From a virus (Duplodnaviria; Heunggongvirae; Uroviricota; Caudoviricetes): a stretch of DNA of 37,292 nt. Below, one piece after another: positions 8,054-37,292 of this stretch (positions within the stretch are counted from its first letter, which is position 1; each line of letters begins with the position of its first letter). Where the stretch lies: the IMG/VR virus record IMGVR_UViG_2703718872_000034; one strand, given 5' to 3'. The notes below the pieces were generated by a model, which was given only the letters and a program-made list of their open reading frames with translations, made no database searches and was not told where the DNA came from. The position numbers and the translations under genes were made by a program.

Positions 8054-8081
8054 GGCGGTGCGGTAACACCGCCCATTTTTT
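8054..8081 (+). terminator. intrinsic-terminator-like hairpin (GGCGGTG / CACCGCC, loop CGGTAA) followed by T6
   Basis: Perfect 7-bp GC-rich inverted repeat plus TTTTTT read directly from sequence, 15 bp upstream of the GemA-like start. Confidence 0.45.
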
Positions 8082-18210: not shown

Positions 18211-19157
18211 TGCCTACCCCGATTACACCGGCGATGATCACCGCCCTGATGACGGGCTACCGTTCTGATTTTCAGGCCGGGATGTCCATGGCCCCGTCGC
18301 AGTACAAAAAAATTGCGATGACCGTGCCCTCCACATCGAAATCCAACACCTACGGCTGGCTGGGGCATGCGCCTCATTTTCGTGAGTGGATTGGTTCTCG
18401 TGTGATCCAGAAAATGAAAGCGCACGGTTATTCCATTGTAAACAAGACCTGGGAAGATACCGTCCCTGTTAATCGTGATGATTTTGAGGACGATAATCTC
18501 GGTATTTACTCGCCTTTATTTCAGGAGCTTGGTCGTGCCGCTGCTGTTCAGCCGGATGAGCTTGTATTTGCTGCTCTGCGTGATGGTCTGAAAAGTGCGT
18601 GTTACGACGGTCAGAACTTCTTTGATACCGAACACCCCGTCTACCCAAATGTGGATGGTACCGGTGATGTGGCGCTGGTCAGCAACATGTTTGTGGCAAA
18701 AACCGGCTCTGTCGGTGCACAGGCGGATTACAGCGGACCGGCCTGGTATCTGCTCGACTGCTCCCGTGCAATAAAACCCATCATCTATCAGAGCCGCCGC
18801 AAGGTTGAACTGGTTGCACAGACCAAAATTGATGAAGGTCGCGCATTCACTGATAACGAGTTTGTGTTCGGTGCATCCGTTCGTCACAACGTGGGCTACG
18901 GCTTCTGGCAGATGGCCTACATGATGCAGTCACCGCTGACGCTGGATGCGCTGTGGCATGGCTGGTCCGCCATGCGTGAGTTTACCGCTGACGGTGGCCG
19001 CAAACTCGGCATCAAACCTACCCATATTGTTGTCCCCACCTCGCTGGAAAAACAGGCGGTGCAGCTGCTGGAGCGTGAACTGTTCGCAGACGGTAACGCC
19101 ACCGTCTCTAACGAGATGAAGGGCAAGCTGGAGCTGGTTGTCGCGGATTATCTGTAA
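18210..19157 (+). CDS. major head subunit, Mu T-like
   Basis: 315 aa; TAATG overlap with I; size and position as Mu gp34. Confidence 0.8.
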   Translation: MPTPITPAMITALMTGYRSDFQAGMSMAPSQYKKIAMTVPSTSKSNTYGWLGHAPHFREWIGSRVIQKMKAHGYSIVNKTWEDTVPVNRDDFEDDNLGIYSPLFQELGRAAAVQPDELVFAALRDGLKSACYDGQNFFDTEHPVYPNVDGTGDVALVSNMFVAKTGSVGAQADYSGPAWYLLDCSRAIKPIIYQSRRKVELVAQTKIDEGRAFTDNEFVFGASVRHNVGYGFWQMAYMMQSPLTLDALWHGWSAMREFTADGGRKLGIKPTHIVVPTSLEKQAVQLLERELFADGNATVSNEMKGKLELVVADYL

Positions 19158-20569: not shown

Positions 20570-20800
20570 ATGACAACCATTTTTATCAAACCCGCGCCGG
20601 GATGCCTGATTCGTGATCCCGACACAATGCGCCCGCTGGCACAGGAGGGGGAGGAAAAGCCCTTCACGCCGTTCTGGTGTCGGCGTCTTGATGACGGCGA
20701 TGTGATTGAGATTGAAAAAACGGTCGGTTCTGCGGATGCACCGGCAGAAAAACCCGCAGCGACTGTAAAACCCGTGGCATCTGACAAGGAGGCTTCCTGA
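20570..20800 (+). CDS. small protein (Mu gp38-like)
   Basis: 76 aa; position directly before sheath gene. Confidence 0.45.
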   Translation: MTTIFIKPAPGCLIRDPDTMRPLAQEGEEKPFTPFWCRRLDDGDVIEIEKTVGSADAPAEKPAATVKPVASDKEAS

Positions 20801-22215
20801 TGATCAACTTTGATTCCATCAGTAATACAAACCGTATTCCGCTTTTTCAGGCGGAATTCAATAACTCCATGGCGGTAACCGGTACTCCGCCGCAGCGTCA
20901 GTGTGTCCTGTTGTTCGGACAGAGAAGTTCTTCTGTTGGTGGTGTTATTAACGTTCCGTACCGTATCACAAGGGCAGAACAGGCCGCCGAGCGCTGGGGA
21001 AGAGGCTCCATGATTGCCCGCATGGTGGCTGAATTTATTGCCATCAATCCTGATACAGAACTGTATGCCATCGCACAGGATAACGGGACAGGCAAAAACG
21101 ACGCCGGAACGATTACGATGAGCGGAACATCCGTTGTTGACGGTGTGCTCAGTATTTATATCGCCGGTAAGGGGTATCCGGTGGCTGTCAGCAAAGGAGA
21201 AAAAGCGGCGGATGTTGCCGGAAAACTGGCTCTGCTCATAAATCAGGATCTGGATGCGCCTGTTGCTGCTGTGGCAAACGCCCCGTCAGACAATAGTGAT
21301 GCCACAAAAAAAGTCATCGCACTGTCAGCAAAGTTCGTCAGCGAGTGTGACCATGATGTCCGGCTGAATTATTACCCGGAGGATGTTACTCCGCTGGGGA
21401 TTACCGTGATCATCTCCGGTCGCTCAGCCGTCCCCAAAAACCCGGATATCACCCGCAGCGTGGCTGCGATGGGGGATCGGCAGTACAACTATATCGTCAT
21501 GCCGTATAAAGATGCAGCCAATCTGAAGATTCTGGCGAACGAACTGCTGACGCGCTGGGGACCGGAAAAAATGAATGATGGTATGGTCTGGATGGCGCAT
21601 ACCGGTACGTTTGGTAATGTGTCCAGCTTCGGGGAGTCCAGAAATGATTTTCTGTTTACCTGTACCGCGATCCCAAAAGCACCGGAGCCGGATTATATCT
21701 GGGCAGCCACCCTGTGCGCCACCTGTGCGCCGTCTTTATCAGTCGATCCGGCACGACCTCTGCAATCTCTGGCATTGCCTTCCCGACTGGCTCCGGCATT
21801 GTCTGCCCGCCTTACAAATGAGGAACGAAACAGTCTGTTGTATACGGGGATTTCCACGGTAACGGTGGGAGCCGGTGATGTGATGCAGATTGAGCGTCAG
21901 GTGACCATGTATCGCCAGAACGCATACGGCGAAAGCGATCCCAGCTATCTGGATGTGGAAACCATCTACACCCTGTCATATCTGCGTTACTCCCTGCGGG
22001 TATTCATTACACAGCGTTTCCCCCGCCATAAACTGGCAGATGACGGAACGCCAGTTGGTCCCGGACAGTTCATTGTGACACCGCAGATCATGAAGCTCCA
22101 GTTGATTGCTCTGGGTGAAGAGTGGATTGAACAGGGGCTGGTCGAGAATATGGAGGTTATCGATAAAGGTTCCTTTGTCCGGGATATCCGCGCCATTCTG
22201 GTCCCTGCGCAGGTA
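20800..22215 (+). pseudogene. tail sheath gene, N-terminal fragment (about 472 codons), disrupted by inversion
   Basis: ORF 20800..22485 is chimeric: protein-like up to about 22215, then runs antisense through the fibre gene; the in-frame continuation is found on the minus strand at 30977..30850 ending just before the tube gene RBS. Confidence 0.7.
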
Positions 22216-22683
22216 ACGGTTATCACCTTCGCTCTTGCTGTAAACATCCAGATTATTACGGGCGGTTCCCTTATTCTCCAGGTCGGCGAGATTCTGATCC
22301 TTCGCCAGGGCATTAACGTCACCGGGACCAAGACTGTTTTTTGTGGCAAGCGTCCCCAGACCAAGATAACCACGGGCCAGACGCTGGGCCTCCGCACCGG
22401 CATCAGCAATTTCTTTCAGGTTATTTTTCCGGGAAAAAGCATTCGCAGCGATAATGGCTTTAATAGACAGCGTAAGCTGGTTTAACTGCGCCTTATCCGG
22501 CTGAATACTGGCTTCAGCCAGAATATTCAGCAGTTCGGCCTGGAGAATATTCAGCCAGTCCTGACCAATCCAGCTGATACCTTTTTGTCCGTCACCTTCG
22601 GTAAACCAGGTGGTGGTATTACTCTGCGCCGGTGCCAGCGCAGGCATATTCGCCACGCCGGAATTATTATCAACATGAAACAT
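22211..22683 (-). pseudogene. tail fibre gene constant (N-terminal) part Sc, separated from its variable part by inversion
   Basis: Minus ORF with GAGGAGGAGAA RBS and TAATG overlap with upstream gene; fibre-like NLGLG/GDNRY-type sequence up to codon 157, then read-through into antisense sheath sequence; rejoins in frame with Sv at the gix site. Confidence 0.65.
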
Positions 22684-23243
22684 TAAATATTCTCCTCCTC
22701 GTGACTGTTTGCATACACGTAAATAAACGTCTGCCATGCAGGCTTATAACGGTTCAGAATACATTCCAGCGCACCGCCCTCATAAATACGCAGCGGCGTG
22801 AGAATATCATCCAGCACATTCATATTCCGGTAGCCGGTTTCACTGTTTATCGTGACAATACTGACCCACTGTGAATCCGGTGATGGCTGAATATCTATTT
22901 CATAACCAAACTCTGCCGCAAACCGGATATAAAATTCACGGTTCAGCGAAGGCTTCATCCGGTATTTATTCCCGGCATAACGCTGTCGTTCTGTGATGGT
23001 GGCTCCGGCCATATCACACTCGGGAAGGCCGAGATAACGCTCCCAGTCTTCCAGAAGCAGACGGGAACTGTCAGGGAAACGTTCTGCCAGCAGTTGTTTT
23101 CCCGTCCATGCAACACGTTCGGTGGAATGGCTGAGGCCAAGGCATAACGCAGCCAGTACGGATGACGGCCGCTTGTCCCAGGCCAGTCCGTCAGGCAGCA
23201 ACTGCAACAGGGCGCGCTGATGCGGAGTGAGGGTTACAGCCAT
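22683..23243 (-). CDS. baseplate/tail protein (Mu gp48-like, P2 gpI-like)
   Basis: 186 aa; position upstream of fibre gene; overlapping stop/start. Confidence 0.7.
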   Translation of the reverse strand: MAVTLTPHQRALLQLLPDGLAWDKRPSSVLAALCLGLSHSTERVAWTGKQLLAERFPDSSRLLLEDWERYLGLPECDMAGATITERQRYAGNKYRMKPSLNREFYIRFAAEFGYEIDIQPSPDSQWVSIVTINSETGYRNMNVLDDILTPLRIYEGGALECILNRYKPAWQTFIYVYANSHEEENI

Positions 23244-24319
23244 GTGATTTCCCCCACTGTCAGCAGCTCACTGTCCCCCGCCTGAACCGACGTCAGCGGG
23301 CTGCGCACTTCAAAATCCTCCAGATTTTTCACCCCCGCCACGGCACGCCAGAAAGACGACGCCAGAACCAGACCGCCGGGCCGGGATTCGTTGTATAACA
23401 GGTCAGTCAGTGCCTGTTTTACGGCCGCCTGATTCTCCGGTGTTTTCGGGATGATCCTGATACTGAAGGGCACTGGCTTATTGGTCAGTTTAAACACGGT
23501 CACCGTCGGCCCCAGCGGCTGACCGACAGGCTGACCGGTCGCCGGATCATCATGACTGCGGATATAATCCGCCACACGTTTCACATCACCTTCACCGGGA
23601 AAAATGTCCGGGTTGTTGTCCTGAACGAACGTCACCCCCACGCTGCCCGCCTGCGGCCATTCCGGGCGGCACCATGCCCGCGTCACCCCCGGCACTTCAC
23701 GCGCCCAGCGTTCAAAATCGTACTGCGTGCCGCCGGACGGCGGATTCTGCACCCGGAAAACCAGGCGGGAAAGCAGCTCCGGCACCGTTTCCACATCCGC
23801 ACCACCGGTGATCCCTGTTCCGGTCACCGTGGCCGTCTGGTTGATCCCCGCCTGCGGAGTGACAAACGTCAGTTTCGTCCCTGCCGGGGCATTTCCCGCA
23901 CGACCGGCACTTTCGGCCTCCACACTGACATTCAGCGTACCGGCTTTACCGGTCAGTGAGGAGGTGATGCGGTAAACCACGCCGTCACTGCGCTGGAGAA
24001 GCACACCTTCCGTGATCCCCGCATCCGTGGTCAGCATCAGCTGAACCGGCCCGTCACCCCGTGAGGCGGGTTTACGCATGACACCCCAGAAAGCGCAGTG
24101 CTTCAGCAACTCGGCTTCATCGGCTTCTGTCGGGATGATCTGACGTGCAATCCAGGCCAGATGTTCATGCTCCTGTGCAGACAATCCTGCCTGAGCATAC
24201 GCAATGGCATTCAGGGTGGTTTCATTCACGCCCGGCTGCGAACCGGGAAGACGCTGGCTGATATCCTGCTGTGTCTGCGTGATTAATTGTGCCAGCGGTA
24301 AAGGCTGATAAGGCATCAC
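23234..24319 (-). CDS. baseplate J-like protein (Mu gp47-like)
   Basis: 361 aa; position and size. Confidence 0.75.
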   Translation of the reverse strand: MMPYQPLPLAQLITQTQQDISQRLPGSQPGVNETTLNAIAYAQAGLSAQEHEHLAWIARQIIPTEADEAELLKHCAFWGVMRKPASRGDGPVQLMLTTDAGITEGVLLQRSDGVVYRITSSLTGKAGTLNVSVEAESAGRAGNAPAGTKLTFVTPQAGINQTATVTGTGITGGADVETVPELLSRLVFRVQNPPSGGTQYDFERWAREVPGVTRAWCRPEWPQAGSVGVTFVQDNNPDIFPGEGDVKRVADYIRSHDDPATGQPVGQPLGPTVTVFKLTNKPVPFSIRIIPKTPENQAAVKQALTDLLYNESRPGGLVLASSFWRAVAGVKNLEDFEVRSPLTSVQAGDSELLTVGEITWL

Positions 24320-24753
24320 TCCCCCTTAAGATCAGCATAAAAAATCATGGGTCTTACCGAACCATCAGGCAGGGTTATGCGCACCGAAAGCGCCAGCCGC
24401 GCGTGTCCCACACGTTCTGCATGACAGACCACGGATGACGCCACGCCATCCTGACTGAGCCAGCCCAGCGCCTCATCCGCGTAGGCACGGGCACGGCTTA
24501 TCACGGAGACCAGCGTTTTTTCCCGGCTGAGAAGCCACAGACGGGAGCCAATGGGGCGCGGGCGAAAACTGTCTCCCCACCATCCCCGGCGGTCACGTGT
24601 GCCATCAGGGATTTCATCCGATGCCAGTGCCCGGCGGTCAGTAAACAGTGAAATCAGAACCGCTGTCAGCAGGCTGTCATCTGTCAGCAGGTCTGCACCG
24701 TTCAGTTGCAGCGAACCGCATCCCTGATCCCACACAATTGCAATATCAGCCAT
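24316..24753 (-). CDS. baseplate wedge protein (Mu gp46-like)
   Basis: Start placed at internal ATG 24753 with AGGAG RBS, 145 aa; longer ORF to 24876 lacks RBS. Confidence 0.65.
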   Translation of the reverse strand: MADIAIVWDQGCGSLQLNGADLLTDDSLLTAVLISLFTDRRALASDEIPDGTRDRRGWWGDSFRPRPIGSRLWLLSREKTLVSVISRARAYADEALGWLSQDGVASSVVCHAERVGHARLALSVRITLPDGSVRPMIFYADLKGE

Positions 24754-25360
24754 TCTCCGGCGCTCCTGTCTTACTGCCTTCACCGTTATCATGATGTACA
24801 TGGCCGGAATAGGTGATTCCCGCAATAACAGCCTCGGACATCGTGAACGTACCCTGTGATTTTCCTGTGCCGTCAATGGTCAGATTACCTTTGATATGCA
24901 GGTTTTTATCCACCGTGACATTGCCTGTAAAGGTGGCTTCCGGTGTATCCACCTGAACACCTTCATCGGCGTAAATTTCCAGCGTCTTACAGGTCACAAT
25001 GATCCGACCGTTCTTTGTCAGACGTATACGGTGCCCCTCATGGTGATACACGCCGGTATCTCCGGCAGTGAGTCCGGTCGGGCGACTGCGGCGGTCTTCC
25101 ACCACAAGCACCACGGTCTGATCACGCTGCCCGCCCAGACAGGCAAAAAAGGTTTCCGCACCCGGCAGGGGAACACTGATCTGCCCGTACTGCTGGGGAC
25201 GCTCCACATCATCAAAGGTTTCGCCGTCCATGCCGGTGAGCTGCACATTCTGCATTTTCAGTTCGTCATGTGTGCCGGTCAGAACGCCCCGGCCAAACAG
25301 CAGGCGAATGCCGCGCGTTACCGGGGCAATCAGGCGGCTGAACACTTCATCATTCATCAA
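24746..25360 (-). CDS. baseplate spike/assembly protein (Mu gp45-like, gpV-like)
   Basis: 204 aa; position between P-like and wedge genes. Confidence 0.7.
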   Translation of the reverse strand: MMNDEVFSRLIAPVTRGIRLLFGRGVLTGTHDELKMQNVQLTGMDGETFDDVERPQQYGQISVPLPGAETFFACLGGQRDQTVVLVVEDRRSRPTGLTAGDTGVYHHEGHRIRLTKNGRIIVTCKTLEIYADEGVQVDTPEATFTGNVTVDKNLHIKGNLTIDGTGKSQGTFTMSEAVIAGITYSGHVHHDNGEGSKTGAPENG

Positions 25361-26474
25361 AGCTAATCCCCTGTTTTTTCATCTGCTGGCGAATAAAGGC
25401 ATCAACATCATCACCGGAACCACCACGGCCCTTACTGTCCGGCTCTGCCGGAACGATAAAGCCGTCACGCGGTGCCAGTACCAGCCGGGTGACTTCCCCG
25501 TTCTGCTCATCCAGTAAAAACTCCACCTGGCAGACCAGCAGTTCAGTCTGTTCGATACCGAAACGCAGGGCTGAAACACCGGTCAGCAGATTGACATCCC
25601 ATAACCGGCCATCATCCCGGAACCAGCCACGCACGGTGGCGGAAAACCGTTCTGAACGGGCAACCGCACGGCGCATCTCCCGCAGGGCGCGCTGCCGTGC
25701 ACCGGTGGAGTCTGTCTGCTGATCGGCGAGGATGATTTTCGGCCGGTAGCGACCGATCTGCTCATCACTGATGATGCCCACTGGGGCCGCCAGCCGGGCG
25801 GCAGATTCGCTGTCTCCCCGTTTGCCACCACCGCGTCCATGCCCCCGGACACGGTATTCGCTGTATCGTCCTCGCCAGTCCGTGTTGTAATCGGCATCAA
25901 GCAGGTTTTCCCCCAGCACCAGTCTGTCCGTCTGCTGATTTCCTGCCTGGGTGAACACCAGATCACCGTCAGCATTACTGGTCACCAGCACCCCACGATG
26001 CCGGGCCGCACGGGTCAGCGCATCCGCCACGGTTTCTGAGTTTTCCAGGGTAAAAGAGCTGAAGGGGCGTGCAGCCGTGTCGTCGTTAACCTGCCAGCGC
26101 ACGGCTATTCCGAAGGGCGCACATAAATCTGCGGCAATCTGTGCCAGCGTCCGGTTTCGCCACTGGCTGCCGGGATGGATGGCGGCACAGTCCACCAGGT
26201 CGCCGGTTTTATCCCGACCGTTAATGCTGATCTGATGACGGGTTGCACTGATCCGCTGACTGACCTGATCCAGCCAGCCACTGATGACAGTCTGCCCGTT
26301 AATTCTGAGCGTCAGGGACTGACCGGTCCGCAGGGCTGAGGGGATGCGCTCACCGGGCAGCATCAGCCCCAGTTCAAACGACCCGGCCAGATGCTCCAGA
26401 GAACGACGGACGCTTACCGTCAGCCAGCCGGAAAAAATACTGCCGCCAATATACAGCTCAATCCTGCTGCTCAC
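25350..26474 (-). CDS. tail protein P-like (Mu gp44, P2 gpD-like)
   Basis: 374 aa; position after N-like gene. Confidence 0.75.
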   Translation of the reverse strand: MSSRIELYIGGSIFSGWLTVSVRRSLEHLAGSFELGLMLPGERIPSALRTGQSLTLRINGQTVISGWLDQVSQRISATRHQISINGRDKTGDLVDCAAIHPGSQWRNRTLAQIAADLCAPFGIAVRWQVNDDTAARPFSSFTLENSETVADALTRAARHRGVLVTSNADGDLVFTQAGNQQTDRLVLGENLLDADYNTDWRGRYSEYRVRGHGRGGGKRGDSESAARLAAPVGIISDEQIGRYRPKIILADQQTDSTGARQRALREMRRAVARSERFSATVRGWFRDDGRLWDVNLLTGVSALRFGIEQTELLVCQVEFLLDEQNGEVTRLVLAPRDGFIVPAEPDSKGRGGSGDDVDAFIRQQMKKQGISFDE

Positions 26475-27816
26475 TAATCACCTCCACACTGCGACCACCA
26501 GGAACAAAAACCGGATCAGGGATGTTGTTCCTGCGGACAAAATACTGCCAGCGACGGCTGTTGCCGGTGGCACGGTACAGCGTGACCAGTGCCGGTTCGG
26601 TGGTTCTCACCATGACCAGAGAAGCACCGGGAAGATGCACGCTACGCGTTGTTAAATCCTCTGTCAGCGCAAGCCTGGCATCACGTAATGCAAGGGCGGT
26701 TCCGGTATGGCCCTGTGCGGACAAATCCAGCACCTGTTGTTCCAGGGCATCACTCAAATCCCGGTTGATCCGCTGCACATCGGCAGAACTTTCCAGCCAG
26801 GCCAGTCCGCCCTCCCGGTCTGTATCCTGAACGTGCGTCGCACTCTGCCGGACGACCTGATCCAGCAGTTTTCCTACCGTCTGCGCCTGTGACACCAGGG
26901 TTGCGCTCTGCATGACTGTCCGCAGCAGACGGATATTTTTCTGTGCCGCAGGCGTCAGACCAATCAGGATCTGCGGATCATCCTGCCCGCTGAGGGTATA
27001 ACGCAGGGAAGAAAGTGTGCGGTACAGTTGCGGCATTGCCTGCTCTGTCATGCTGTCACGATTTGTGGTCAGGCTGCCGGACGGCGTTGCGGCCTTCCCG
27101 GTCAGTGACAGGGAAGGATCGCCGGGCAGTCCCGTCAGCACCGCAAACATTCCGGCCAGAGATTCAGCCATGCGACGGGGCGAATTAATCAGGGCGGCAG
27201 CATTCCCTTTCAGGGCAGTGAAACTGGCCGTAAAGGCACTGATATCCTGCACAATCCCCATTCCCGAAACGGCATTCTCCAGCGCATCAATTTTATCGCT
27301 GATGGTGTCGGTCATGGCCTGCACATCATGCAGGCCGTCTGAAATCACTGTCCAGCCGTCTGAAAGCGTGTTAAACAACTGATTCATTGCTGAACCGCTT
27401 TTCTGCTCCAGAACGGCAGCCGTGTCTTCAGCCACCGCCGGTGCGGTATCGTCACTGGCGGGGATCACGTTGATCGTGAACTCAACCGTTCCCTGTTCGC
27501 TGGCGTTATAACGGCTTTCAAAGCTGTTTATCAGCACGTTTAAGGTGCCATAATCCGGGTGCATCAGTTCACCGGCACCGGGTGCCCGCAGCGCATCCCG
27601 CAGGCGGCTTCGCTGCGTCTGAAGATCATCGCCGATCACAAGAGCCGTGAATGTAAACTCCGGGAGTTTTGGCCCCAAATCATCCGCGCCGCCGCTTTCC
27701 CGCAGAGGATATTCACGGCGCACAATGTTACGTCCGCCCCGTTCCCGTTGTTCCTGATAAATCAGAAACGGCACACCACGAAAGGAGCCACGCCCCGGCG
27801 TGTCAGTAGAGGCCAT
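26458..27816 (-). CDS. DNA circularisation protein N-like (Mu gp43)
   Basis: 452 aa; position directly after tape measure. Confidence 0.75.
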   Translation of the reverse strand: MASTDTPGRGSFRGVPFLIYQEQRERGGRNIVRREYPLRESGGADDLGPKLPEFTFTALVIGDDLQTQRSRLRDALRAPGAGELMHPDYGTLNVLINSFESRYNASEQGTVEFTINVIPASDDTAPAVAEDTAAVLEQKSGSAMNQLFNTLSDGWTVISDGLHDVQAMTDTISDKIDALENAVSGMGIVQDISAFTASFTALKGNAAALINSPRRMAESLAGMFAVLTGLPGDPSLSLTGKAATPSGSLTTNRDSMTEQAMPQLYRTLSSLRYTLSGQDDPQILIGLTPAAQKNIRLLRTVMQSATLVSQAQTVGKLLDQVVRQSATHVQDTDREGGLAWLESSADVQRINRDLSDALEQQVLDLSAQGHTGTALALRDARLALTEDLTTRSVHLPGASLVMVRTTEPALVTLYRATGNSRRWQYFVRRNNIPDPVFVPGGRSVEVISEQQD

Positions 27817-29857
27817 AGTTCCCTCCGTTCCAGACGTTCACATCAAGGCCATGCTGTGCGGTATCATCCACATCAATACTGCGTGCCCGCCAGCCTTCAG
27901 GGGCCACAAGCTCCACCCGTGCGGCGGTTTTCGCGGTGGCCTGTCCGCCATTTTCATCACTGCCCCGTAATTTCTGCCAGGCTTCGGTCAGCCATCCCCC
28001 CAGATAATCACCGAGATAACTGCCCACCGTGGAGCCAATGGCAACCCCGACCGGACCGGCGGCAGCCCCCAGCGCGCCACCGGCGATACTTCCGGCAAGG
28101 GAACCCATGGCACCGGCTTTATCAGCTGCACTGGCGCTGTTGTCCAGCAGTACAGGAGCCGCCATGGCACCGGCCCACAGGGCACCACCGCCCAGCCGAC
28201 CGGCACCACGGAACAACCCGGCAAAACGCCCCAGCCCCATGCGGTTTCCGGCAGCCGAAAGCAGACCACCTGCACGGCTCATCATACGACCGAAGAAGCC
28301 CTGTTTACCGGCGCTCTCTGCCAGTTGTTCGCCTGCGGTCACAACGGTCGGGACACCCCGCCCACGTCCGGGGCCGCGTTTTTTACGGCCGCGCACGGTT
28401 CTGCCGTCACCGCTGACCACCACATCCCCGCCACCTGATGCCAGACCACCCGCAGGCCAGTTGGTGACCAGTACGGGCTGAACGGCAGCAGGATTTACCC
28501 CGGTAAGAAAGTTCATAAAACGCTGGCCGCGTCCTGGCTGCGTGCCCGGAACGGTGGTCTGCGGTTTACGAAAAGGCGAGGTCAGCACAGCGGCCGTGGA
28601 TAACCCGTACCCCAACAATGCCGCCCCCGGTCGCAGTGCCCCAAGACCTATGGCGCGGACAGCCTTCAGCGCACGGGTGGCGAGATACATATACAGGAGA
28701 TATTTCGCGGCGGTCTGTGCGCCCTGAGCAATGCGATCCAGCGCATCGCCATAACCGGCGTCACGCAATGCCTGAAGCGTTTCCCTGACTTTCTGAATGG
28801 CCCGGTAAAAACCCGTCGCTGCGTCTCTGGCATACTCAAACCCCTGATTCAGGGCTGAGGCTGTTTGTGTGGCCAGCTTGTCCTGTAAGCCGCTTTTCTG
28901 TGCCGCATCGGCATAATCCAGGAAGCCTTTCAGGCTCTTTTTCAGGCTGTCAAATGGCCCTTTTGCCATTACTTCACGGGCAAATCCGTCCCAGACGTCG
29001 CCCATCATGGATGTCATCCCTGTCCATGAGTTCATGGCGTTTTTCTGGGCACCTTTTGCCTGTTCGGCCATCACCTGAAATAACAGCCGAATGCTGTCCG
29101 ATCCCAGTTTTCCTTTCTCGCCTTTCTCACGGATGATCTTCTGGTTTACACCCAGTTTATCGGCCAGCAACTGGTAAACGTTTATCCCGTATCCGGTCAG
29201 AATATTGGCGTCTGCGGCCTGGATACTCTGGCGGGCAAACATCTGTTTGAGTTGCAGGGACGCACCCTGTGCATCTGACAGTGACCAGCCGTGATAGCCG
29301 CCCTGATCCTGAAGCATGGTAATAAAGCGGCGGGCTTCCCTGTCACTCATACCGAACCCGCGACTGGAGGCGTATTCCTGCATAACCCCCGCCAGCCCCC
29401 AGGTGGTTTCCTTTGCGTTCTGTACCGCCCAGGCTTTCACTGCTTCCGTTTTTGCCGTATCGCCATGATTAATGGCATTGAGACGCAGAATATAGTTCTC
29501 CATCTCTGCGGCCGGGCGGATAAAGGCTTTATTAAAACCGTAGACCGCAGCCCCTCCTGCCAGCATCCCGTAAAGGTTGCTGAGACGTCCCAGTGTGCCG
29601 GTAATACTGCCCTGAAGACGGTCAAAATCCGACGTTACCGTGCGGATACTGCCACGGACACCGGCAAGCGTACGCTGCATACGGGAGCCGACAAGCTCTG
29701 TCTCCTGACCGGCACGGCGGGCTGCATTTCCAATACCACCCAGCCCCGTCCTGCCGACGCGGGAGAACGCTCCCAGCTCCTGTGACCACTGGCGGGATTT
29801 GGCGGAAACATTGCCGAGTAAATCGACAATCAGGGAGGCTTTCAGGTTTTTTGCCAT
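27803..29857 (-). CDS. tail tape measure protein
   Basis: 684 aa, Ala/Gly-rich, helical N-terminal half, located between chaperone and N-like genes. Confidence 0.85.
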   Translation of the reverse strand: MAKNLKASLIVDLLGNVSAKSRQWSQELGAFSRVGRTGLGGIGNAARRAGQETELVGSRMQRTLAGVRGSIRTVTSDFDRLQGSITGTLGRLSNLYGMLAGGAAVYGFNKAFIRPAAEMENYILRLNAINHGDTAKTEAVKAWAVQNAKETTWGLAGVMQEYASSRGFGMSDREARRFITMLQDQGGYHGWSLSDAQGASLQLKQMFARQSIQAADANILTGYGINVYQLLADKLGVNQKIIREKGEKGKLGSDSIRLLFQVMAEQAKGAQKNAMNSWTGMTSMMGDVWDGFAREVMAKGPFDSLKKSLKGFLDYADAAQKSGLQDKLATQTASALNQGFEYARDAATGFYRAIQKVRETLQALRDAGYGDALDRIAQGAQTAAKYLLYMYLATRALKAVRAIGLGALRPGAALLGYGLSTAAVLTSPFRKPQTTVPGTQPGRGQRFMNFLTGVNPAAVQPVLVTNWPAGGLASGGGDVVVSGDGRTVRGRKKRGPGRGRGVPTVVTAGEQLAESAGKQGFFGRMMSRAGGLLSAAGNRMGLGRFAGLFRGAGRLGGGALWAGAMAAPVLLDNSASAADKAGAMGSLAGSIAGGALGAAAGPVGVAIGSTVGSYLGDYLGGWLTEAWQKLRGSDENGGQATAKTAARVELVAPEGWRARSIDVDDTAQHGLDVNVWNGGNYGLY

Positions 29858-29984
29858 GGATTACTGCTTCGTTCTGAGAATTTTTTCCGTTTGTTGGCAG
29901 TGCCGGTAAAGTTGCGATAAGGGGAGGTTAAGTGCCCATTCCGGGCCGCTTCTGGTCACCATCCCCAGCACTATTGCCGCTTCT

Positions 29985-30461
29985 TCAATCTGCGCCCGAC
30001 ACTGCGCCTGCTCGCCCCCGATCAGCCGCCAGCTTTCCGGCAAGCGCTGTATCCAGCAGGCTGACCGCTGCCATCAGACGGGAGAGATCGCGCTCGCTTA
30101 ACTGTCCAATCTGGCGTTGTGACAACGGCCCCTGAATGTCACCGACAGCGGCAATCTGGCGACGCAGCAGCGCAATACCGCGCAGGGCCGGTGATGCCAC
30201 CAGAACCGGGCCATTTCGGGTTTCCATAAGACGTTCAGCATCGGTTTCCGCATCAATGCTGTCTTTCGCCGTCAGTTCACGGAAGGTGACGCGGTATTCA
30301 CGGGATTCCCCGAACGGCAGACCGTCGAGCAGATCCACATAGCCTTTCGCCAGTTGTTCAGCCAGACCGGCGGTGCGTGGATCGCCGTCCTCAAGTGCAT
30401 CACGGATAGCCTCAATAACGGCTTCGTCAGAAACCGCTGTTTTTTTCTTACGTGTGGTCAT
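29985..30461 (-). CDS. tail assembly chaperone (Mu gp41-like)
   Basis: 158 aa acidic protein between tube and tape measure; overlapping alternative-frame ORF 29861..30043 at its 3' end. Confidence 0.6.
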   Translation of the reverse strand: MTTRKKKTAVSDEAVIEAIRDALEDGDPRTAGLAEQLAKGYVDLLDGLPFGESREYRVTFRELTAKDSIDAETDAERLMETRNGPVLVASPALRGIALLRRQIAAVGDIQGPLSQRQIGQLSERDLSRLMAAVSLLDTALAGKLAADRGRAGAVSGAD

Positions 30462-30475
30462 TTTATTTTTCCTGA

Positions 30476-30841
30476 TTACTGGACACGGGTACTGGTGGCA
30501 CTGGCGAACTTCGCGGAGATCTCCCCGCCACCGTCAAGTGAGGCCGGTTCACTGCTCCAGGCCTTCGTCATCATGTGGACTTCGCCGGTGTCCGCCACAA
30601 ACTCGATAGTGACCGCAGTCCAGGTGTTGATTTCATCAGCGGCCGGTGAACCGTCTCCGCCTGCCGGAAATTTGCAGTCCAGCGTCGCTTCACGTGGTTT
30701 CTCGCGATAGCCATAGACTTTTGCGCCTTTCACCACTTCACGCTCAAAGCCGGACGGGGAGAACGTGGCCCCCTCAAGGGTGGAGTATTCCTGACCGTTC
30801 ACACGGATAGTGGCCGTGCCCTGATACTGTTTTCCGCTCAT
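30476..30841 (-). CDS. tail tube protein (Mu gp40-like)
   Basis: 121 aa; RBS GAGGTAAG before ATG; follows sheath C-terminal fragment. Confidence 0.75.
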   Translation of the reverse strand: MSGKQYQGTATIRVNGQEYSTLEGATFSPSGFEREVVKGAKVYGYREKPREATLDCKFPAGGDGSPAADEINTWTAVTIEFVADTGEVHMMTKAWSSEPASLDGGGEISAKFASATSTRVQ

Positions 30842-30849
30842 GTCTTACC

Positions 30850-30977
30850 TCACAAAATGAAACGGATCTGCGCTGCCATGAAGCGGAACTGGTTAACCAG
30901 ATCCGGTGTACACATCACATCCAGACGGTTACGATCAGTTGTGTTACGCTCCACAAGCAGATTGTTTTTAAATACCT
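30850..30977 (-). pseudogene. tail sheath gene, C-terminal fragment (about 42 codons plus stop)
   Basis: Minus-strand frame ...VFKNNLLVERNTTDRNRLDVMCTPDLVNQFRFMAAQIRFIL-stop ending 9 nt before tube start; in frame with sheath N-terminal fragment across shared AGGTA. Confidence 0.6.
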
Positions 30978-30990
30978 CGGTTTACGGGAA
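30965..30990. other. gix-like recombination site, hybrid (degenerate left half, consensus-like right half GGTTTACGGGAA, centre TC)
   Basis: Right half nearly identical to the reverse complement of the left half of the site next to gin; resembles the Mu gix consensus core AAACC-NN-GGTTT. Confidence 0.6.
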
Positions 30991-31359
30991 ACGGTAAACA
31001 GGGCTGCAAATGCCCTGCCATCGAATGGTACAGCCGTAGCGGCAAACAAGCTGTCTGCGGCACGTAAAATTAACGGTGTTGCGTTCGATGGCACAAAGGA
31101 CATCACTATTACATCCGGGATGACCCAGGCTACAGCAGACGGCAGATATGTTCGTAATGTGCAACTTGGTGCTCAGAGCCGCCACTCTCCTGCGGGTAAT
31201 GAAGTCACCTGGGATTATAAAACGCCAGCAGGTTGTATGCTTTCCGGTATTCATGTACAGGATACCGGCTCCCGGTCTGCGGATAATATCGGTGGGGTCT
31301 ATTATCGCCCGGTTCAGATTTATATTAATAATGCCTGGAGAACGGTGAGTTCAGTGTAA
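30978..31359 (+). CDS. tail fibre variable C-terminal part Sv (no own start; fuses to Sc)
   Basis: Frame open from the gix site: GLRETVNRAANALPSNGTAVAANKLSAARKINGVAFDG...GVYYRPVQIYINNAWRTV; typical fibre repeat and C-terminus. Confidence 0.7.
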
Positions 31360-31366
31360 ACCACAG

Positions 31367-31387
31367 AAAAGGGTGCTGAATGCACCC
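31367..31387 (-). terminator. hairpin (GGGTGC / GCACCC) with A/T-rich flanks between convergent Sv and tfa
   Basis: 6-bp perfect inverted repeat; a U-tract follows the stem on the minus-strand transcript. Confidence 0.45.
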
Positions 31388-31393
31388 TCTGAA

Positions 31394-31966
31394 TTATTCC
31401 GGTTTTTCCGGCCAGGGAATCGCCTGGTAATGCCCCTCACTGGCAATATCATTAAAGTGCATTTCTTTAAGCTGTCGGATATACGCCATCCAGCGCGTCA
31501 GCTTTAATTTATTTTCATCGCTAATCATGTCCAGTTTTAATTCTGTTTTCCAGTCATCCACGGTTCCGTTGGCCTCCTGGAGCAGCGATGAGCGGCGATT
31601 TTCAGCAACCGTCTTCCAGTTTACCGGCACCTTTGATATCAGGCCATCAGAAAACTGCCAGTTACCGTCAATATTCACACCTTCCGGCAGTTCGTCCACT
31701 TCAACAACAGTAAAACCTGCCGGATATAAAGCAGAGACATCTTCAGCAACAGAGCAGATAATGCCCGTTACAGGCGAAATACAGAGTTTGTATTTCTTTG
31801 TGAAAAGCGGGATAGATTCATAAAAATCCCTTCCGTCCTCACTCTGGAAATACTGAACATCCTCACCATAGGGTTTGTCTTTCGGGTAATATCGTTTGAC
31901 ATTAATCAGTTGCATAAACATCACCATGTAAATCAATGATAAAAACAGGAATAATACTATCGCCAT
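31394..31966 (-). CDS. tail fibre assembly protein (Mu U / P2 G family)
   Basis: C-terminal ...HYQAIPWPEKPE motif typical of tail fibre assembly proteins; start at 31966 or internal ATG 31915. Confidence 0.7.
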   Translation of the reverse strand: MAIVLFLFLSLIYMVMFMQLINVKRYYPKDKPYGEDVQYFQSEDGRDFYESIPLFTKKYKLCISPVTGIICSVAEDVSALYPAGFTVVEVDELPEGVNIDGNWQFSDGLISKVPVNWKTVAENRRSSLLQEANGTVDDWKTELKLDMISDENKLKLTRWMAYIRQLKEMHFNDIASEGHYQAIPWPEKPE

Positions 31967-32036
31967 ATACAGGCAATGCTTGTCTGAAATAACGCATATT
32001 TCAGATGCTGGCTGCTGTGTGCTATGCCCCCGTTAA

Positions 32037-32404
32037 TTAAATACTTGCAGCGGATACCCAATGCCCATTAATACAATATTGTATCTGTCTGTAATAAACA
32101 CGCTCATCACCACCACGCATTTCCCAGTCTCCGTTAGTCTTAAAACCGGTAATCACATTTCCTGATGACAGGGAGTAATTATATTCCAGTCCGCCGCTTA
32201 ATGCCTGCGCTCCCAGTCTTACCCCTGTAACATAACGCTGATTGGCCGTTGATTCCGGCATTCCTGACGTAATGTTTATATCCTGCGTGCCGTCAAAGGC
32301 GACACCATTGATTCTGCGGGCATTTGCCAGCCTGCTTGCTGCAACAGCCGTACCGTTTGATGGCAGGGCATTCGCGGCCCTGTTTACAGTATCCCGTAAA
32401 CCGA
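32037..32404 (-). CDS. alternative tail fibre variable C-terminal part Sv' (no own start)
   Basis: Minus-strand frame open from gix site: GLRDTVNRAANALPSNGTAVAASRLANARRINGVAFDG...RVYYRQIQYCINGHWV; N-terminal 20 aa nearly identical to Sv. Confidence 0.7.
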
Positions 32405-32416
32405 GGTTTCAGGGAT
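32391..32416. other. gix-like recombination site (ATCCCGTAAACC-GA-GGTTTCAGGGAT), near-palindromic
   Basis: 12-2-12 inverted repeat read directly; resembles Mu gix/hix family; 55 bp upstream of gin. Confidence 0.7.
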
Positions 32417-32470: not shown

Positions 32471-33031
32471 ATGCTGATTGGCTATATACGCGTATCAACA
32501 AATGACCAGAACACAGGTTTACAAAGAAATGCGCTGGAATGTGCAGGATGTGAGCAGATTTTTGAAGATAAAATGAGCGGAAAAACAACGCAGCGGCCGG
32601 GACTGAAGCGGGCACTGAAGAAACTAAAACCCGGTGACACGCTGATGGTATGGAAACTGGACAGGCTGGGGCGCAGTATGCGCCACCTTGTTGCGCTGAC
32701 AGATGAATTACAGCAACAGGGGATAAATTTTCGTAGTCTTACTGACAACATTGATACGTCAACCCCTATGGGGCGCTTCTTTTTTCACATAATGGGTGCG
32801 CTGGCAGAAATGGAGCGTGAACTGATTGTCGAACGGACACGGGCTGGTCTTGCAGCTGCCCGTGAAAGGGGACGAACCGGCGGCAGACCCCGTCGTCTCA
32901 CGCAGGAACAATACGAGCAGGTCGGGCGTTTACTGGCCGGGGGTGTCAGCCGAAGACAGGTGGCACTTATTTTTGATATCGGCCTTTCAACCCTTTATCG
33001 TTATTATCCTGCGAGCGTTTCGGAAAAATAA
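32471..33031 (+). CDS. gin: serine DNA invertase Gin (Gin/Hin/Pin/Cin family)
   Basis: 186 aa; N-terminus MLIGYIRVSTNDQNTGLQ with catalytic Ser in YIRVST, C-terminal HTH; near identity by recall to Mu Gin; RBS AAGGAAGG. Confidence 0.92.
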   Translation: MLIGYIRVSTNDQNTGLQRNALECAGCEQIFEDKMSGKTTQRPGLKRALKKLKPGDTLMVWKLDRLGRSMRHLVALTDELQQQGINFRSLTDNIDTSTPMGRFFFHIMGALAEMERELIVERTRAGLAAARERGRTGGRPRRLTQEQYEQVGRLLAGGVSRRQVALIFDIGLSTLYRYYPASVSEK

Positions 33032-33130: not shown

Positions 33131-35173
33131 ATGACGTCCAAATGGGTTCAACTATCATCAATGCCCGGAAACTTTACCGTTAAAGTTTCCGGTGGTACAG
33201 CGGCATTTCTTGAGGCTCCCTTTCCTCCGGTCGAAACAAAAGGAGGAATGACATTTGCTGACTGTCTCATCAGTTTTAATACACGGGATTGCCTGTGGGT
33301 AAGGCCAGTATCCGGTAATCCGAGTGTGGAAATTACCGGAGCAGGTATCGGTGCGGTCATTCCGTTAAGTGCTGATGTTGCCGGTACTGCTGAACCGTCA
33401 GACTGGGATAATGCTGAAACACATACCCGTCCGTCAGGAAATGAAACTGCTTCCAGCTCCCCTTCCTGGTATTACGTGGTGGTTCTTGCTGGTCAGTCAA
33501 ACGGTATGGCTTACGGTGAAGGTCTGCCACTGCCGGAGACATATGATCGCCCCGAACCGCGTATTATGCAGTTAGCCCGTCGCAGTACAGTCACGCCGGG
33601 AGGTAAAGCCTGTCAGTATAACGACATCATTCTGGCCGACCACTGTCTGCATGATGTGCAGGATATGAGTGGAAAAAATCACCCGAAAGCGGATGTGGCT
33701 AAAGGGCAATATGGCACCGTGGGTCAGGGGCTTCACATTGCCAAAAAACTGCTGCCGTTTATTCCGGCAGATGCGGGGATTCTGCTGGTTCCCTGCTGCC
33801 GTGGTGGTTCTGCATTCACGGCGGGTGCTGACGGCACGTACAGTGACAGCGCGGGTGCTTCAGAGAACTCAGCCCGCTGGGGTGTGGATAAGCCGTTGTA
33901 TAAGGATTTAATCAGCCGGACAAAAGCGGCGCTGGCGAAGAACCCGAAAAACCGCCTGCTTGCCGTGGTGTGGATGCAGGGTGAGTTTGATATTGATGCG
34001 AAGCCGACGGAGCATTCCGCGCTGTTTCTGGCGATGGTGGAAAAATTCCGCACAGACCTGGCTGAAAAAGCAGAGCAGTGTATTGGTGGTCGAACTGAAA
34101 CTGTGCCGTGGATTTGTGGCGATACCACGTATTTCTGGAAAAAGAAAAATGAACCGGCATATCAGGCAATCTATGGCGGCTACAAAAATAAAACAGATAA
34201 AAACATTCATTTCGTCCCATTAATGACAGATGAAAATGGCGCGAATGTACCCACCAACAATCCGGCAGAGGACCCGGATATTGAATCCATTGGTTATTAC
34301 GGCTCAACGTGGCGTAACAATGCTGCCACCTGGACATCTGCGGACCGGGCCAGTCATTTCAGTGCCTGGGCGCGCCGTGGGATTGTTTCCGACCGTCTGG
34401 CCACGGCTGTTCTGACTCACGCAGGGCGAACCACAGTAAAAGCCGATGTTCCATCTTCTGAAACTGATGCGCCAACGCCGTCACCTTCAGAAGCTGAAAC
34501 AGTAACCACAACAACACTGCTGTCTTACCGTGCCAGTGAGTCTGAAGGGAAGCTGACCGAACAGGGCTGGAGTGCAGGTGGAGGTAAAGCGGAAATTGTT
34601 GCCGATGAAGGTGCAACTGGTGGAACCGCGATGAAGCTGAGCAAGGAGACGGGTAAAGGATCATGGCATCTGGAGCATGATGCCGGTACTGGCGCTGAAC
34701 TGCTGAAAAATGGCGGCTTAATCAGTTGCCGCTTTAAGGCATCCAGTGAACTGGTGGCAAATCAGTATGTCATTGCACTTTACTGGCCGGTTTCCTCTCT
34801 GCCGCAGGGTGTCACCCTGACAGGGGAAGCAGGGAATAATCTGCTGGCAGCGTTCTACATCCAGACAGACGCAAAAGACCTGAATGTGATGTACCACAAT
34901 GCAAAAGTGGCGACAAATAACCTGAAGCTGGGAACCTTTGGCGCATTTGATAATGAGTGGCATACGCTGGCCTTCCGCTTTGCCGGGAATAACAGCCTTC
35001 AGGTGACGCCGGTTATTGATGGTCAGGACAGTACACCGTTCACGCTGACGCAGTCACCGGTCAGTGCATTTGCGGCGGATAAACTGCATGTGACAGACAT
35101 TACCAAAAATGCGACTTACCCGGTGCTGATTGACAGCATTGTGGTGGAAGTGAAAAAAGCGGTAACAGAATAA
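33131..35173 (+). CDS. SGNH/SASA-type carbohydrate esterase, prophage NanS-like sialate O-acetylesterase candidate
   Basis: 680 aa; VVLAGQSNGMAYGEG motif (GQSN catalytic block of the SASA family); N-terminal non-catalytic region, central esterase region, C-terminal Thr/Ser-rich linker and about 220-aa possible carbohydrate-binding domain. Confidence 0.65.
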   Translation: MTSKWVQLSSMPGNFTVKVSGGTAAFLEAPFPPVETKGGMTFADCLISFNTRDCLWVRPVSGNPSVEITGAGIGAVIPLSADVAGTAEPSDWDNAETHTRPSGNETASSSPSWYYVVVLAGQSNGMAYGEGLPLPETYDRPEPRIMQLARRSTVTPGGKACQYNDIILADHCLHDVQDMSGKNHPKADVAKGQYGTVGQGLHIAKKLLPFIPADAGILLVPCCRGGSAFTAGADGTYSDSAGASENSARWGVDKPLYKDLISRTKAALAKNPKNRLLAVVWMQGEFDIDAKPTEHSALFLAMVEKFRTDLAEKAEQCIGGRTETVPWICGDTTYFWKKKNEPAYQAIYGGYKNKTDKNIHFVPLMTDENGANVPTNNPAEDPDIESIGYYGSTWRNNAATWTSADRASHFSAWARRGIVSDRLATAVLTHAGRTTVKADVPSSETDAPTPSPSEAETVTTTTLLSYRASESEGKLTEQGWSAGGGKAEIVADEGATGGTAMKLSKETGKGSWHLEHDAGTGAELLKNGGLISCRFKASSELVANQYVIALYWPVSSLPQGVTLTGEAGNNLLAAFYIQTDAKDLNVMYHNAKVATNNLKLGTFGAFDNEWHTLAFRFAGNNSLQVTPVIDGQDSTPFTLTQSPVSAFAADKLHVTDITKNATYPVLIDSIVVEVKKAVTE

Positions 35174-35822: not shown

Positions 35823-35993
35823 TTAATGCACGTTTTGTGTATTTTCCCTCCGGGGAGAACAGGCAGGACATATCAGCATCCTGAAACAGGAAGCATTTTT
35901 TGGTTTGTATGTCTTGCCATTTTGAGATCGAGAACGGCGATAGATGAGCTGTAAGGGAGTCTTACAGGCAGGGCAAACAGGCTCTTTATCCAT
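35823..35993 (-). CDS. small Cys-rich zinc-finger-like protein (56 aa), divergent from com
   Basis: Minus-strand ORF with AAAAGGAG RBS before ATG at 35993; CPAC...C...CPAC arrangement. Confidence 0.35.
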   Translation of the reverse strand: MDKEPVCPACKTPLQLIYRRSRSQNGKTYKPKNASCFRMLICPACSPRRENTQNVH

Positions 35994-36179
35994 GATAAAG
36001 ATCTCCTTTTTATGCATCTCTGCTTTACAGGAGACCGGGGAATATCATAGGATACGCCACGAGCTCGAAGTAAAGCATTGATGCAAGTTTTTACAGATTG
36101 ACCCAGCATAGTTCCAGCTATGCTGGGTTTCCCTTTTATGTAGTATCCTGTTGATTTGAAACATACTACATATACGCGC

Positions 36180-36357
36180 GATCCTACCTTCACTGGATAA
36201 AAAGTCAATAAAATGATCATTTTATGATCGTTTTCACTCGCTAACTCTTCGTTTTCTTTAAGTAAATAATCACCTCCCTGAATCATTGTTGATGACTTTT
36301 CAATCTATTTGTTGTATCAATTAAACAAATCGAATCGATCGTTTTTGTCGATCGATT
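36180..36357. promoter_or_regulatory. com/mom upstream regulatory region with five GATC (Dam) sites and a perfect 9-bp inverted repeat AATCGATCG-N7-CGATCGATT
   Basis: GATC at 36180, 36215, 36226, 36337, 36350; palindrome at 36333..36357 about 45 bp upstream of com start; Mu mom is known to be controlled by Dam-methylated GATC sites upstream of its promoter. Confidence 0.5.
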
Positions 36358-36400: not shown

Positions 36401-36601
36401 ATGTATCGAAACATACGGTGCCGACACTGCAATAAGCTACTGGCACGGGCCAGTTTCAGTTATCTGGAAGTAAAATGTCCGCGCTGTAAAACCCTCAATC
36501 AAATCACATCTCCGAGCGCCACAGAGCACCCCACATACACAAGGAAATCCTGTCGTGGGGAACAGAAAGCAAGTCACATCCCGAATCATCAGCACGCCTG
36601 A
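36401..36601 (+). CDS. com: Com, zinc-finger translational activator of mom
   Basis: 66 aa from ATG 36401 with AGGAGG RBS; [27 protein letters not shown] closely resembles Mu Com; overlaps mom start. Confidence 0.8.
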
Positions 36602-37292
36602 ACTTATTCGCTATAACGACAATATCGTTGGTTATGGCTCCCGTGAGTTGCGGGTTGAGACAATAAGTTGCTGGCTGGCCAGACTGGTCATCGTCAATAA
36701 ACATTACAGCCACCGTTTCGTAAATAACTCCTACCTTCATCTGGGCATATTTTCAGAACGGGAACTTGTTGGCGTAATGCAATGGGGCTACGCCCTTAAC
36801 CCAAACAGTGGTGCACGCGTCGTAACGGGTACGCAGAACCGAGAATATATGGAGCTTAACCGGCTATGGCTGCATGACTGTATGCCGAGAAACTCCGAAT
36901 CAAGGGCAATCAGTTACGCGCTCAAGCTAATCAGACAGCTTTATCCGCAGGTACAGTGGGTTCAGTCGTTTGCAGATGAGCGTTGTGGCTGTCTTGGTGT
37001 CGTGTATCAGGCAAGCAATTTTGATTATGTAGGCAGCCATGAATCAACATTCTATGAACTTGATGGCGAGTGGTATCACGAGATTTGCAGGAATGCCATT
37101 AAACGAGGCGGACAACGAGGTGAACATCTGAGGGCTAATATCGACAGGGCCAGTGTTCATAAGTTCCGACAGTTTCGTTACATCCGGTTTCTGAACAAGA
37201 GGGCCAGAAAACGCCTCAACACAAAGCTATTCAAAGTCCAGCCTTACCCAAAACCACAAACTGTTAAAACCGGTTTGAAAGAGATTGGGTGA
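36555..37292 (+). CDS. mom: DNA modification protein Mom
   Basis: 245 aa from GTG at 36555 overlapping com 3' end, as in the Mu com-mom operon; position as last gene after gin; stop at window end. Confidence 0.75.

Follow-up and report, generated by a model that had tools for sequence, protein, structure and literature searches.

A probable NanS-p-type sialate O-acetylesterase with a distinct N-terminal domain encoded between gin and com of an Sp18-type Mu-like prophage

Gene content of the locus

The DNA analysed here, called the window, is a stretch of 37,292 nucleotides from a virus of the class Caudoviricetes (IMG/VR record IMGVR_UViG_2703718872_000034), and its organisation is that of prophage Sp18 of Escherichia coli O157 Sakai. 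Near its right end, between the gin-type DNA invertase gene and com, the window harbours an open reading frame (ORF) with an ATG start, encoding a candidate sialate O-acetylesterase of 680 amino acids (aa) on the plus strand (33131-35173), with VVLAGQSNGMAYGEG at residues 116-130. An earlier reading of the letters alone (the sequence-only reading) had singled out this ORF and its motif, and both are present at exactly these positions. The features of the locus are listed in Table 1.

The order and orientation of gin, com and mom are the same as at the right end of phage Mu, with 75% aa identity for the invertase and 46% for Com. The two regions differ in what separates gin from com. In the Mu reference record the end of gin (35673) and the start of com (35768) are 94 bp apart and no gene is annotated in this gap, as the sequence-only reading had said of Mu, whereas in the window the distance is about 3.4 kb and includes four ORFs.

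Table 1. Features of the gin-to-mom region of the window, with the domains of the esterase
Feature	Position	Strand	Evidence and remarks
gin-type DNA invertase	32471..33031	+	Pfam Resolvase E 1.4e-51 and HTH_7; left boundary of inserted module
Whole esterase ORF, 680 aa	33131..35173	+	phrog_143 E 2.3e-303; orthologue of Sakai Sp18 ECs_4993
N-domain, residues 1-88, predicted all-beta, cupin-like, in place of DUF1737	33131..33394	+	predicted model
Linker 1, residues 89-111, low complexity, ends in SSSP before catalytic domain	33395..33463	+	alignment A1; pLDDT <50
Catalytic SASA/SGNH esterase domain, residues 112-435	33464..34435	+	Pfam SASA E 3.4e-12; 3PT5 alignment
Linker 2, residues 436-459, Ser/Thr/Pro-rich	34436..34507	+	DVPSSETDAPTPSPSEAETVTTTT; variable in alignment A1
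C-terminal lectin-like jelly-roll domain (DUF6645), residues 460-675	34508..35155	+	Pfam DUF6645 and PDB 6YP6
DUF1378 gene, 60 aa, N-terminal transmembrane helix	35321..35503	+	Pfam DUF1378 E 1.2e-38
DUF826 gene, 81 aa	35539..35784	+	Pfam DUF826 E 3.1e-15
ORF of no assigned function, ECs_4996 homologue	35873..36286	-	phrog_26524 E 1.1e-75; inside insert
com	36401..36601	+	Pfam Zn_ribbon_Com E 3.2e-12; RefSeq 'Com family' CDS at equivalent position; right boundary of module
mom (DNA modification)	36555..37292	+	Pfam Mom E 2.5e-77, phrog_1384 E 9.9e-84

Catalytic domain

The Pfam profile SASA (PF03629) matched residues 116-313 with 46.9 bits, above its gathering score of 24.8. Residues 104-428 align over 325 residues with E. 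coli NanS/YjhS (PDB 3PT5, E 1.6e-117). The SGNH block I (GQSN, residues 121-124, including Ser123) and block IV (RASH, residues 406-409, including His409) are aligned to GQSN and RSSH of 3PT5, and the paper on that structure is said to give Ser19 and His301 as the catalytic pair of NanS. Both blocks are invariant in the 15 aligned homologues (alignment A1). Definitions of blocks I and IV for NanS-p, including R(S/A)SH with the catalytic His, have been published (PMC10462455). The full-length AlphaFold2 model was poor, with a mean predicted local distance difference test (pLDDT) score of 53.7 and mostly below 50 in the catalytic region, and was not used. The SGNH fold of the catalytic domain is inferred from the end-to-end domain alignment with 3PT5.

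Chromosomal NanS, a 9-O-acetyl-N-acetylneuraminate esterase, shares with the window protein the catalytic domain and the GQSN and R(S/A)SH blocks. However, NanS consists of a single domain and its gene belongs to the nanCMS operon, whereas the window protein is phage cargo with additional N- and C-terminal domains.

In PHROGs the whole protein belongs to phrog_143, a family without assigned function, and NCBIfam holds no model matching it. A tail-fibre-family protein or a decayed remnant, instead of an esterase, would agree with the position of the gene just after the tail-fibre and invertase region, and with a single weak match to a PHROG 'tail protein' (E 3.2e-05, residues 210-311 of the esterase domain). 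Nevertheless, the matches to the NanS and NanS-p structures are very strong, and the ORF is intact, conserved at 91-100% identity across many genomes, with invariant catalytic motifs in A1, so that the probability left to this explanation is negligible. The conservation also indicates that the ORF is not a chance ORF. Tail-fibre or remnant identity was rejected on the Pfam SASA match, the matches to 3PT5 and 6YP6, and the invariant motifs.

Linkers and C-terminal domain

Pfam DUF6645 matched residues 525-643 (E 3.3e-72), and residues 460-675 align with the C-terminal domain of NanS-p (PDB 6YP6, E 1.3e-113). Residues Y546, Y551, Y576 and F647 correspond to Y510, Y515, Y540 and F611 of the phage phi24B protein, the proposed aromatic residues of a carbohydrate-binding site (PMC10462455), and all four are conserved. 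The sequence-only reading had described a non-catalytic N-terminal region, a Thr/Ser linker (residues 436-459, rich in Ser, Thr and Pro) and a possible sugar-binding domain at the C-terminus (DUF6645, 6YP6), and this layout is real. Its assignment of the protein to SASA/SGNH sialate O-acetylesterases of the NanS-p type agrees with the SASA, 3PT5 and 6YP6 matches, the SASA profile being matched above its cut-off. A signal peptide, which it had named as a feature to look for, was not found, as the 680-aa protein has no N-terminal hydrophobic segment fit for one.

The N-terminal domain

DUF1737 (PF08410), also named beforehand as a profile to search, gave no match at E<=1 with the full protein or with residues 1-115 alone; the N-terminus is a different, unannotated domain. 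Pfam gave no match for residues 1-111 searched alone at E<=1, and NCBIfam none for the N-domain. A tblastn search of the N-domain against 50,697 phage records returned only two Stx-phage (Shiga toxin phage) records described with 'inserted Mu-like phage'.

Full-length homologues belong to classes (a), (b) and (c). Class (a) proteins have 669-680 aa, are about 91% identical and have the same N-terminus. Class (b) proteins, from E. coli and Shigella, have 682-689 aa, with an overall identity of 64-67% that falls to about 60% within the N-domain. Their genes sit in a second Mu-like prophage lineage, with the order baseplate, tail fibre, invertase, esterase, DUF1378, DUF826, com and C5 DNA methylase. 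Class (c) comprises the classical NanS-p proteins of 636-650 aa with DUF1737, whose N-terminus is unrelated to that of the window protein (13-19% identity over aligned columns, A1). An exhaustive HMMER search of 1.84 billion representatives added one further credible relative of the N-domain, a contig-truncated protein of Salmonella enterica (P0127), in which an N-domain of 30% identity precedes a Pro/Thr linker and the beginning of the esterase with its GQSN. Its gene also has an invertase gene upstream and stands where a Mu-like tail/baseplate cluster ends. No further relatives were found with a three-clade profile of the N-domain. The N-domain was found only on esterases encoded after gin in three diverged Mu-like lineages, twice in E. 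coli/Shigella and once in Salmonella.

The model of residues 1-92, built from the three-clade alignment (pLDDT 76, predicted template modelling score 0.67), has six beta strands between residues 6 and 78, and its tail is disordered. The N-domain is predicted to be a cupin-like beta-barrel of about 85 aa. The His motifs of metal-binding cupins are absent, with zero histidines in residues 1-95. The predicted all-beta fold differs from DUF1737, which consists of a helix and three strands. It resembles many standalone phage proteins of about 90 aa, with template modelling (TM) scores of about 0.6, in matches that are weak and unannotated.

Comparison with nanS-p of Stx phages

Similar to the window protein, the NanS-p proteins of Stx phages (933W L0105/z1466; phi24B vb_24B_21, which is gp84) possess SASA and DUF6645 domains and Ser/Thr/Pro linkers, are prophage-borne in E. 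coli that produce Shiga toxin (STEC), and lack a signal peptide (shown in this analysis for the window protein only). Their genes are also followed by DUF1378 and then DUF826. In the Stx-phage loci compared (L009, L010) the order is stx2AB, nanS-p, an ORF of about 59 aa, an ORF of 81 aa and holin, and DUF826 and DUF1378 genes have been described between nanS-p and S (PMC10462455). DNA homology between the window and these loci extends from 33469 (residue 113, the start of the catalytic domain) to 35162 at 78-84% identity, and the proteins are 78-84% identical from about residue 100. The DUF1378 protein is 53% identical to its Stx-phage copy and 88% identical to that of the second Mu-like clade, and the DUF826 protein is 45% and 73% identical, respectively.

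The differences concern the N-terminus, the length and the phage context. The Stx-phage proteins have 636-657 aa and carry an N-terminal DUF1737, reported as a capsid anchor, whereas the window protein has 680 aa and a predicted cupin-like domain in its place. Stx-phage nanS-p lies in a lambdoid phage between stx/Q and holin, whereas the window gene lies between gin and com/mom in a Mu-like, myovirus-type prophage. The location described for lambdoid phages, in the late region between stx/Q and the lysis gene S, does not apply to the window gene. The sequence-only reading had placed lambdoid NanS-p genes after those for tail fibres; this does not hold for the Stx phages examined, in which the gene is found between stx and the holin gene (PMC10462455).

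Alleles of the gene are mosaic. The C-domain of the window protein (34508-35155) is 95.4% identical to that of a DUF1737-bearing allele in a lambdoid Q/antiterminator context (P0075), but only about 84% identical to other Mu-like alleles (P0004/P0008). Such sequence mosaicism indicates that nanS-p copies are exchanged between prophage types downstream of the N-module boundary. Judged from sequence, the module of three genes is shared by descent, with recombination between phage types, because the identity is 78-84%, DUF1378 and DUF826 follow in the same order, and alleles are mosaic. Convergent acquisition by the two phage types, as suggested in the sequence-only reading, does not hold for a module that is homologous at the protein and DNA level.

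Predicted function and possible role of the N-terminal domain

Taken together, the domain content and the gene neighbourhood argue that the gene very probably encodes a NanS-p-related prophage sialate 9-O-acetylesterase, carried as cargo with DUF1378 and DUF826 at the right end of an Sp18-type Mu-like prophage. Recombinant NanS-p enzymes from strain EDL933 and from O104:H4 cleave 5-N-acetyl-9-O-acetylneuraminic acid (Neu5,9Ac2) as well as acetylated mucin glycans, and support growth on these substrates (PMC8065619). By analogy with these homologues, the window enzyme would remove O-acetyl groups from Neu5,9Ac2, free or on mucin sialoglycans, and the deacetylated sialic acid would become usable by the lysogen or its neighbours. 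The enzyme may gain access to its substrate once the phage has lysed the cell, or while bound to particles; exit by phage lysis is presumed because the protein has no signal peptide.

In phage phi24B, gp84 (NanS-p) is described as a capsid-decoration protein, of which DUF1737 sits as hexamers on the central hexons while cleavage near SSP motifs releases the enzyme part (preprint, bioRxiv 10.64898/2026.04.10.717836). This precedent lends some plausibility to a virion-associated enzyme, which the sequence-only reading had raised. The point of exchange between DUF1737 and the new N-domain lies in the linker ending in SSSP, directly before the catalytic domain. We take the N-terminal replacement as a module swap, in which DUF1737 would have been exchanged for the N-domain at the linker boundary, fitting the same enzyme to a different phage chassis. 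The pattern fits an N-module whose type is matched to the phage chassis, for example as a virion anchor.

A tentative proposal is that the N-domain is a virion anchor, probably for the capsid, specific to Mu-like particles, so that one esterase might be displayed on virions of two unrelated kinds, those of a lambdoid podovirus and those of a transposable Mu-like myovirus, through exchange of the small anchor alone. More broadly, the N-domain could conceivably tether the esterase to the capsid of the Mu-like phage or to a different part of the virion, in which case Sp18-type particles would carry a mucin-sialate de-O-acetylase. The phi24B precedent agrees with this, as do the swap at exactly the DUF1737 module, beyond which homology to Stx-phage DNA sets in with the catalytic domain, and the N-domain type, which tracks phage type in three Mu-like lineages while the rest of the gene recombines freely with lambdoid alleles. 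The resemblance of the N-domain fold to standalone phage proteins (TM about 0.6) and the packaging of Sp18 DNA into particles (PMC2669165) point in the same direction. However, the fold matches are weak and unannotated, and the phi24B precedent is a preprint.

An oligomerisation or additional binding role of the N-domain is equally compatible with the data. One allele (P0069) has a DUF1737 N-terminus, yet on its contig the gene is followed by Mu-like versions of DUF1378, DUF826, com and mom. This locus (L011, GCA_012426925.1, contig AASMET010000054.1, 1-4658) is a single draft contig that starts 607 bp upstream of the gene. Its first approximately 850 bp are Stx-phage-like, with tRNA-Arg and post-stx spacer, the remainder is 93.6% identical to the window, and the junction lies inside the esterase gene. 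The contig may represent a real recombination of two prophages within the esterase gene; alternatively, the assembly may be chimeric at a repeat. The hybrid, if real, would combine the DUF1737 anchor with a Mu-like phage, which speaks against an anchor matched to the phage.

The esterase could also be cargo for lysogenic conversion only, that is a soluble enzyme released by lysis of a fraction of the population, with the N-domain serving as an oligomerisation or carbohydrate-binding module without a role in the virion. We give this explanation nearly an even chance. Nonetheless, it leaves unexplained the strict division of N-modules by phage type while catalytic and C-terminal domains are exchanged, and in phi24B, too, the gene is not among the structural genes, although the virion bears its product.

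De-O-acetylation of a polysaccharide on the bacterial surface, for example O-acetylated O-antigen or polysialic capsule, which would aid adsorption or block superinfection, is a possibility raised for NanS-p in a review (PMC8065619), and the gene adjoins the host-range region with its invertible tail-fibre segment. However, such a receptor-modifying enzyme is improbable here, since Neu5,9Ac2, free or bound to mucin, is the substrate on which close homologues have been shown to act (PMC8065619), homology to tail fibres or tailspikes is limited to the weak PHROG match, and the protein has no secretion signal.

The prophage, its relatives and distribution

The Sakai record shows, in order, the invertase gene ECs_4992, ECs_4993 (679 aa, 'hypothetical protein'), ECs_4994, ECs_4995, ECs_4996 on the minus strand, and then com and mom. 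The window esterase is 91.9% identical at the aa level to ECs_4993, its orthologue with the same neighbours, and the two differ mainly in the C-domain (about 84% identity). Sp18 has been reported to be intact in Sakai, with its DNA packaged into particles (PMC2669165). A 4-kb stretch around the esterase gene is 100% identical in two complete genomes, of strains 2012EL-2448 and 2015C-3121, and is present at >=80% coverage in 168 of the 5426 complete E. coli genomes. The N-domain is present in 231 of these genomes (207 records at >=95% and 26 at 60-80%). It lies under a coding sequence named 'DUF6645 domain-containing protein' in all 24 records listed.

Within the insert, residues 3-21 of the DUF1378 protein have a Kyte-Doolittle value of 2.02. 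The ECs_4996 homologue is truncated or frameshifted in the window and labelled 'frameshifted' by RefSeq in identical genomes, whereas it is intact, with 154 aa, in Sakai. A terminator-like hairpin with a 13-bp stem was present on the plus strand at 36100-36129, inside this ORF and between DUF826 and com. In the second Mu-like clade (L003-L006) a gene for a C5 cytosine DNA methylase (PF00145; for example, L005 4367-5573) follows com, where mom would be expected; the com-controlled modification gene appears to have been swapped in this clade.

The window starts at the start codon of transposase A (position 1) and ends at the stop codon of mom (37292); therefore, neither the repressor/ner region nor either prophage end is included. 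The gene for the major head protein gpT occupies 18210-19157. The prophage interrupts hofC in the reference genomes (L002 2054-2338 and 41745-42665), and Sp18 interrupts sorM in Sakai, which fits transposition into different sites. The prophage of strain 2012EL-2448 also possesses an insertion sequence, IS1A (L002 11638-12335), at a position corresponding to window 8054-8066 approximately, which is absent from the window.

Inversions in the tail region

Upstream of the invertase gene, an invertible segment similar to the G segment was identified at 30974-32407. It is bounded by inverted repeats of 149 nucleotides (30974-31122 and 32259-32407, 77% complementary) and includes, on the minus strand, a tail-fibre assembly gene (31394-31966), along with short alternative C-terminal exons of the fibre. 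The segment is present in opposite orientations in the two reference genomes with 100% identity.

A larger stretch of 8.8 kb (22153-30978), from the 3' end of the tail sheath gene to the constant part of the tail fibre, is inverted in the window relative to every reference copy. Its right junction (30974-30978) coincides exactly with the G-like segment's left gix site, and its left junction (22153-22157) is a weak gix-like site in the sheath gene, with GAGGT common to both at the crossover. The inversion yields a fused sheath ORF of 561 aa (20800-22485). The junction was found in none of the 5426 complete E. coli genomes. This inversion is likely an aberrant Gin-mediated event at a secondary site, which would inactivate the tail sheath gene, or else an assembly artefact.

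Implications for nanS-p in Mu-like prophages

The enzyme family is well known, and many copies are labelled 'sialate O-acetylesterase' at NCBI. The gene itself is annotated as 'hypothetical protein' in the Sakai record and as 'DUF6645 domain-containing protein' in RefSeq, by the Prokaryotic Genome Annotation Pipeline (PGAP). Our literature search found no paper tying nanS-p to a Mu-like prophage or naming ECs4993; the key primary NanS-p papers lay outside the reach of this search, and an earlier mention is possible. Two features appear to be undescribed: the substitution of a distinct domain, confined to Mu-like prophages, for DUF1737, and a gin-proximal position that is conserved in three lineages. 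The N-domain defines a small new domain family without a current Pfam entry.

NanS-p enzymes are thought to aid growth of STEC on acetylated mucin sialic acids, and are counted per strain as genes of lambdoid prophages. An extra copy on a Mu-like prophage occurs in about 4% of complete E. coli genomes; most of these are STEC, and O157 Sakai is among them. This copy belongs in nanS-p gene counts and in studies with multiple deletions. If the preprint is right that DUF1737 anchors the enzyme to the capsid, the clean exchange of this module is a natural test case for virion display as the selected function. If the N-domain is a virion anchor of Mu-like phages, this would imply strong selection for esterase-decorated particles in the mucosal niche of STEC.

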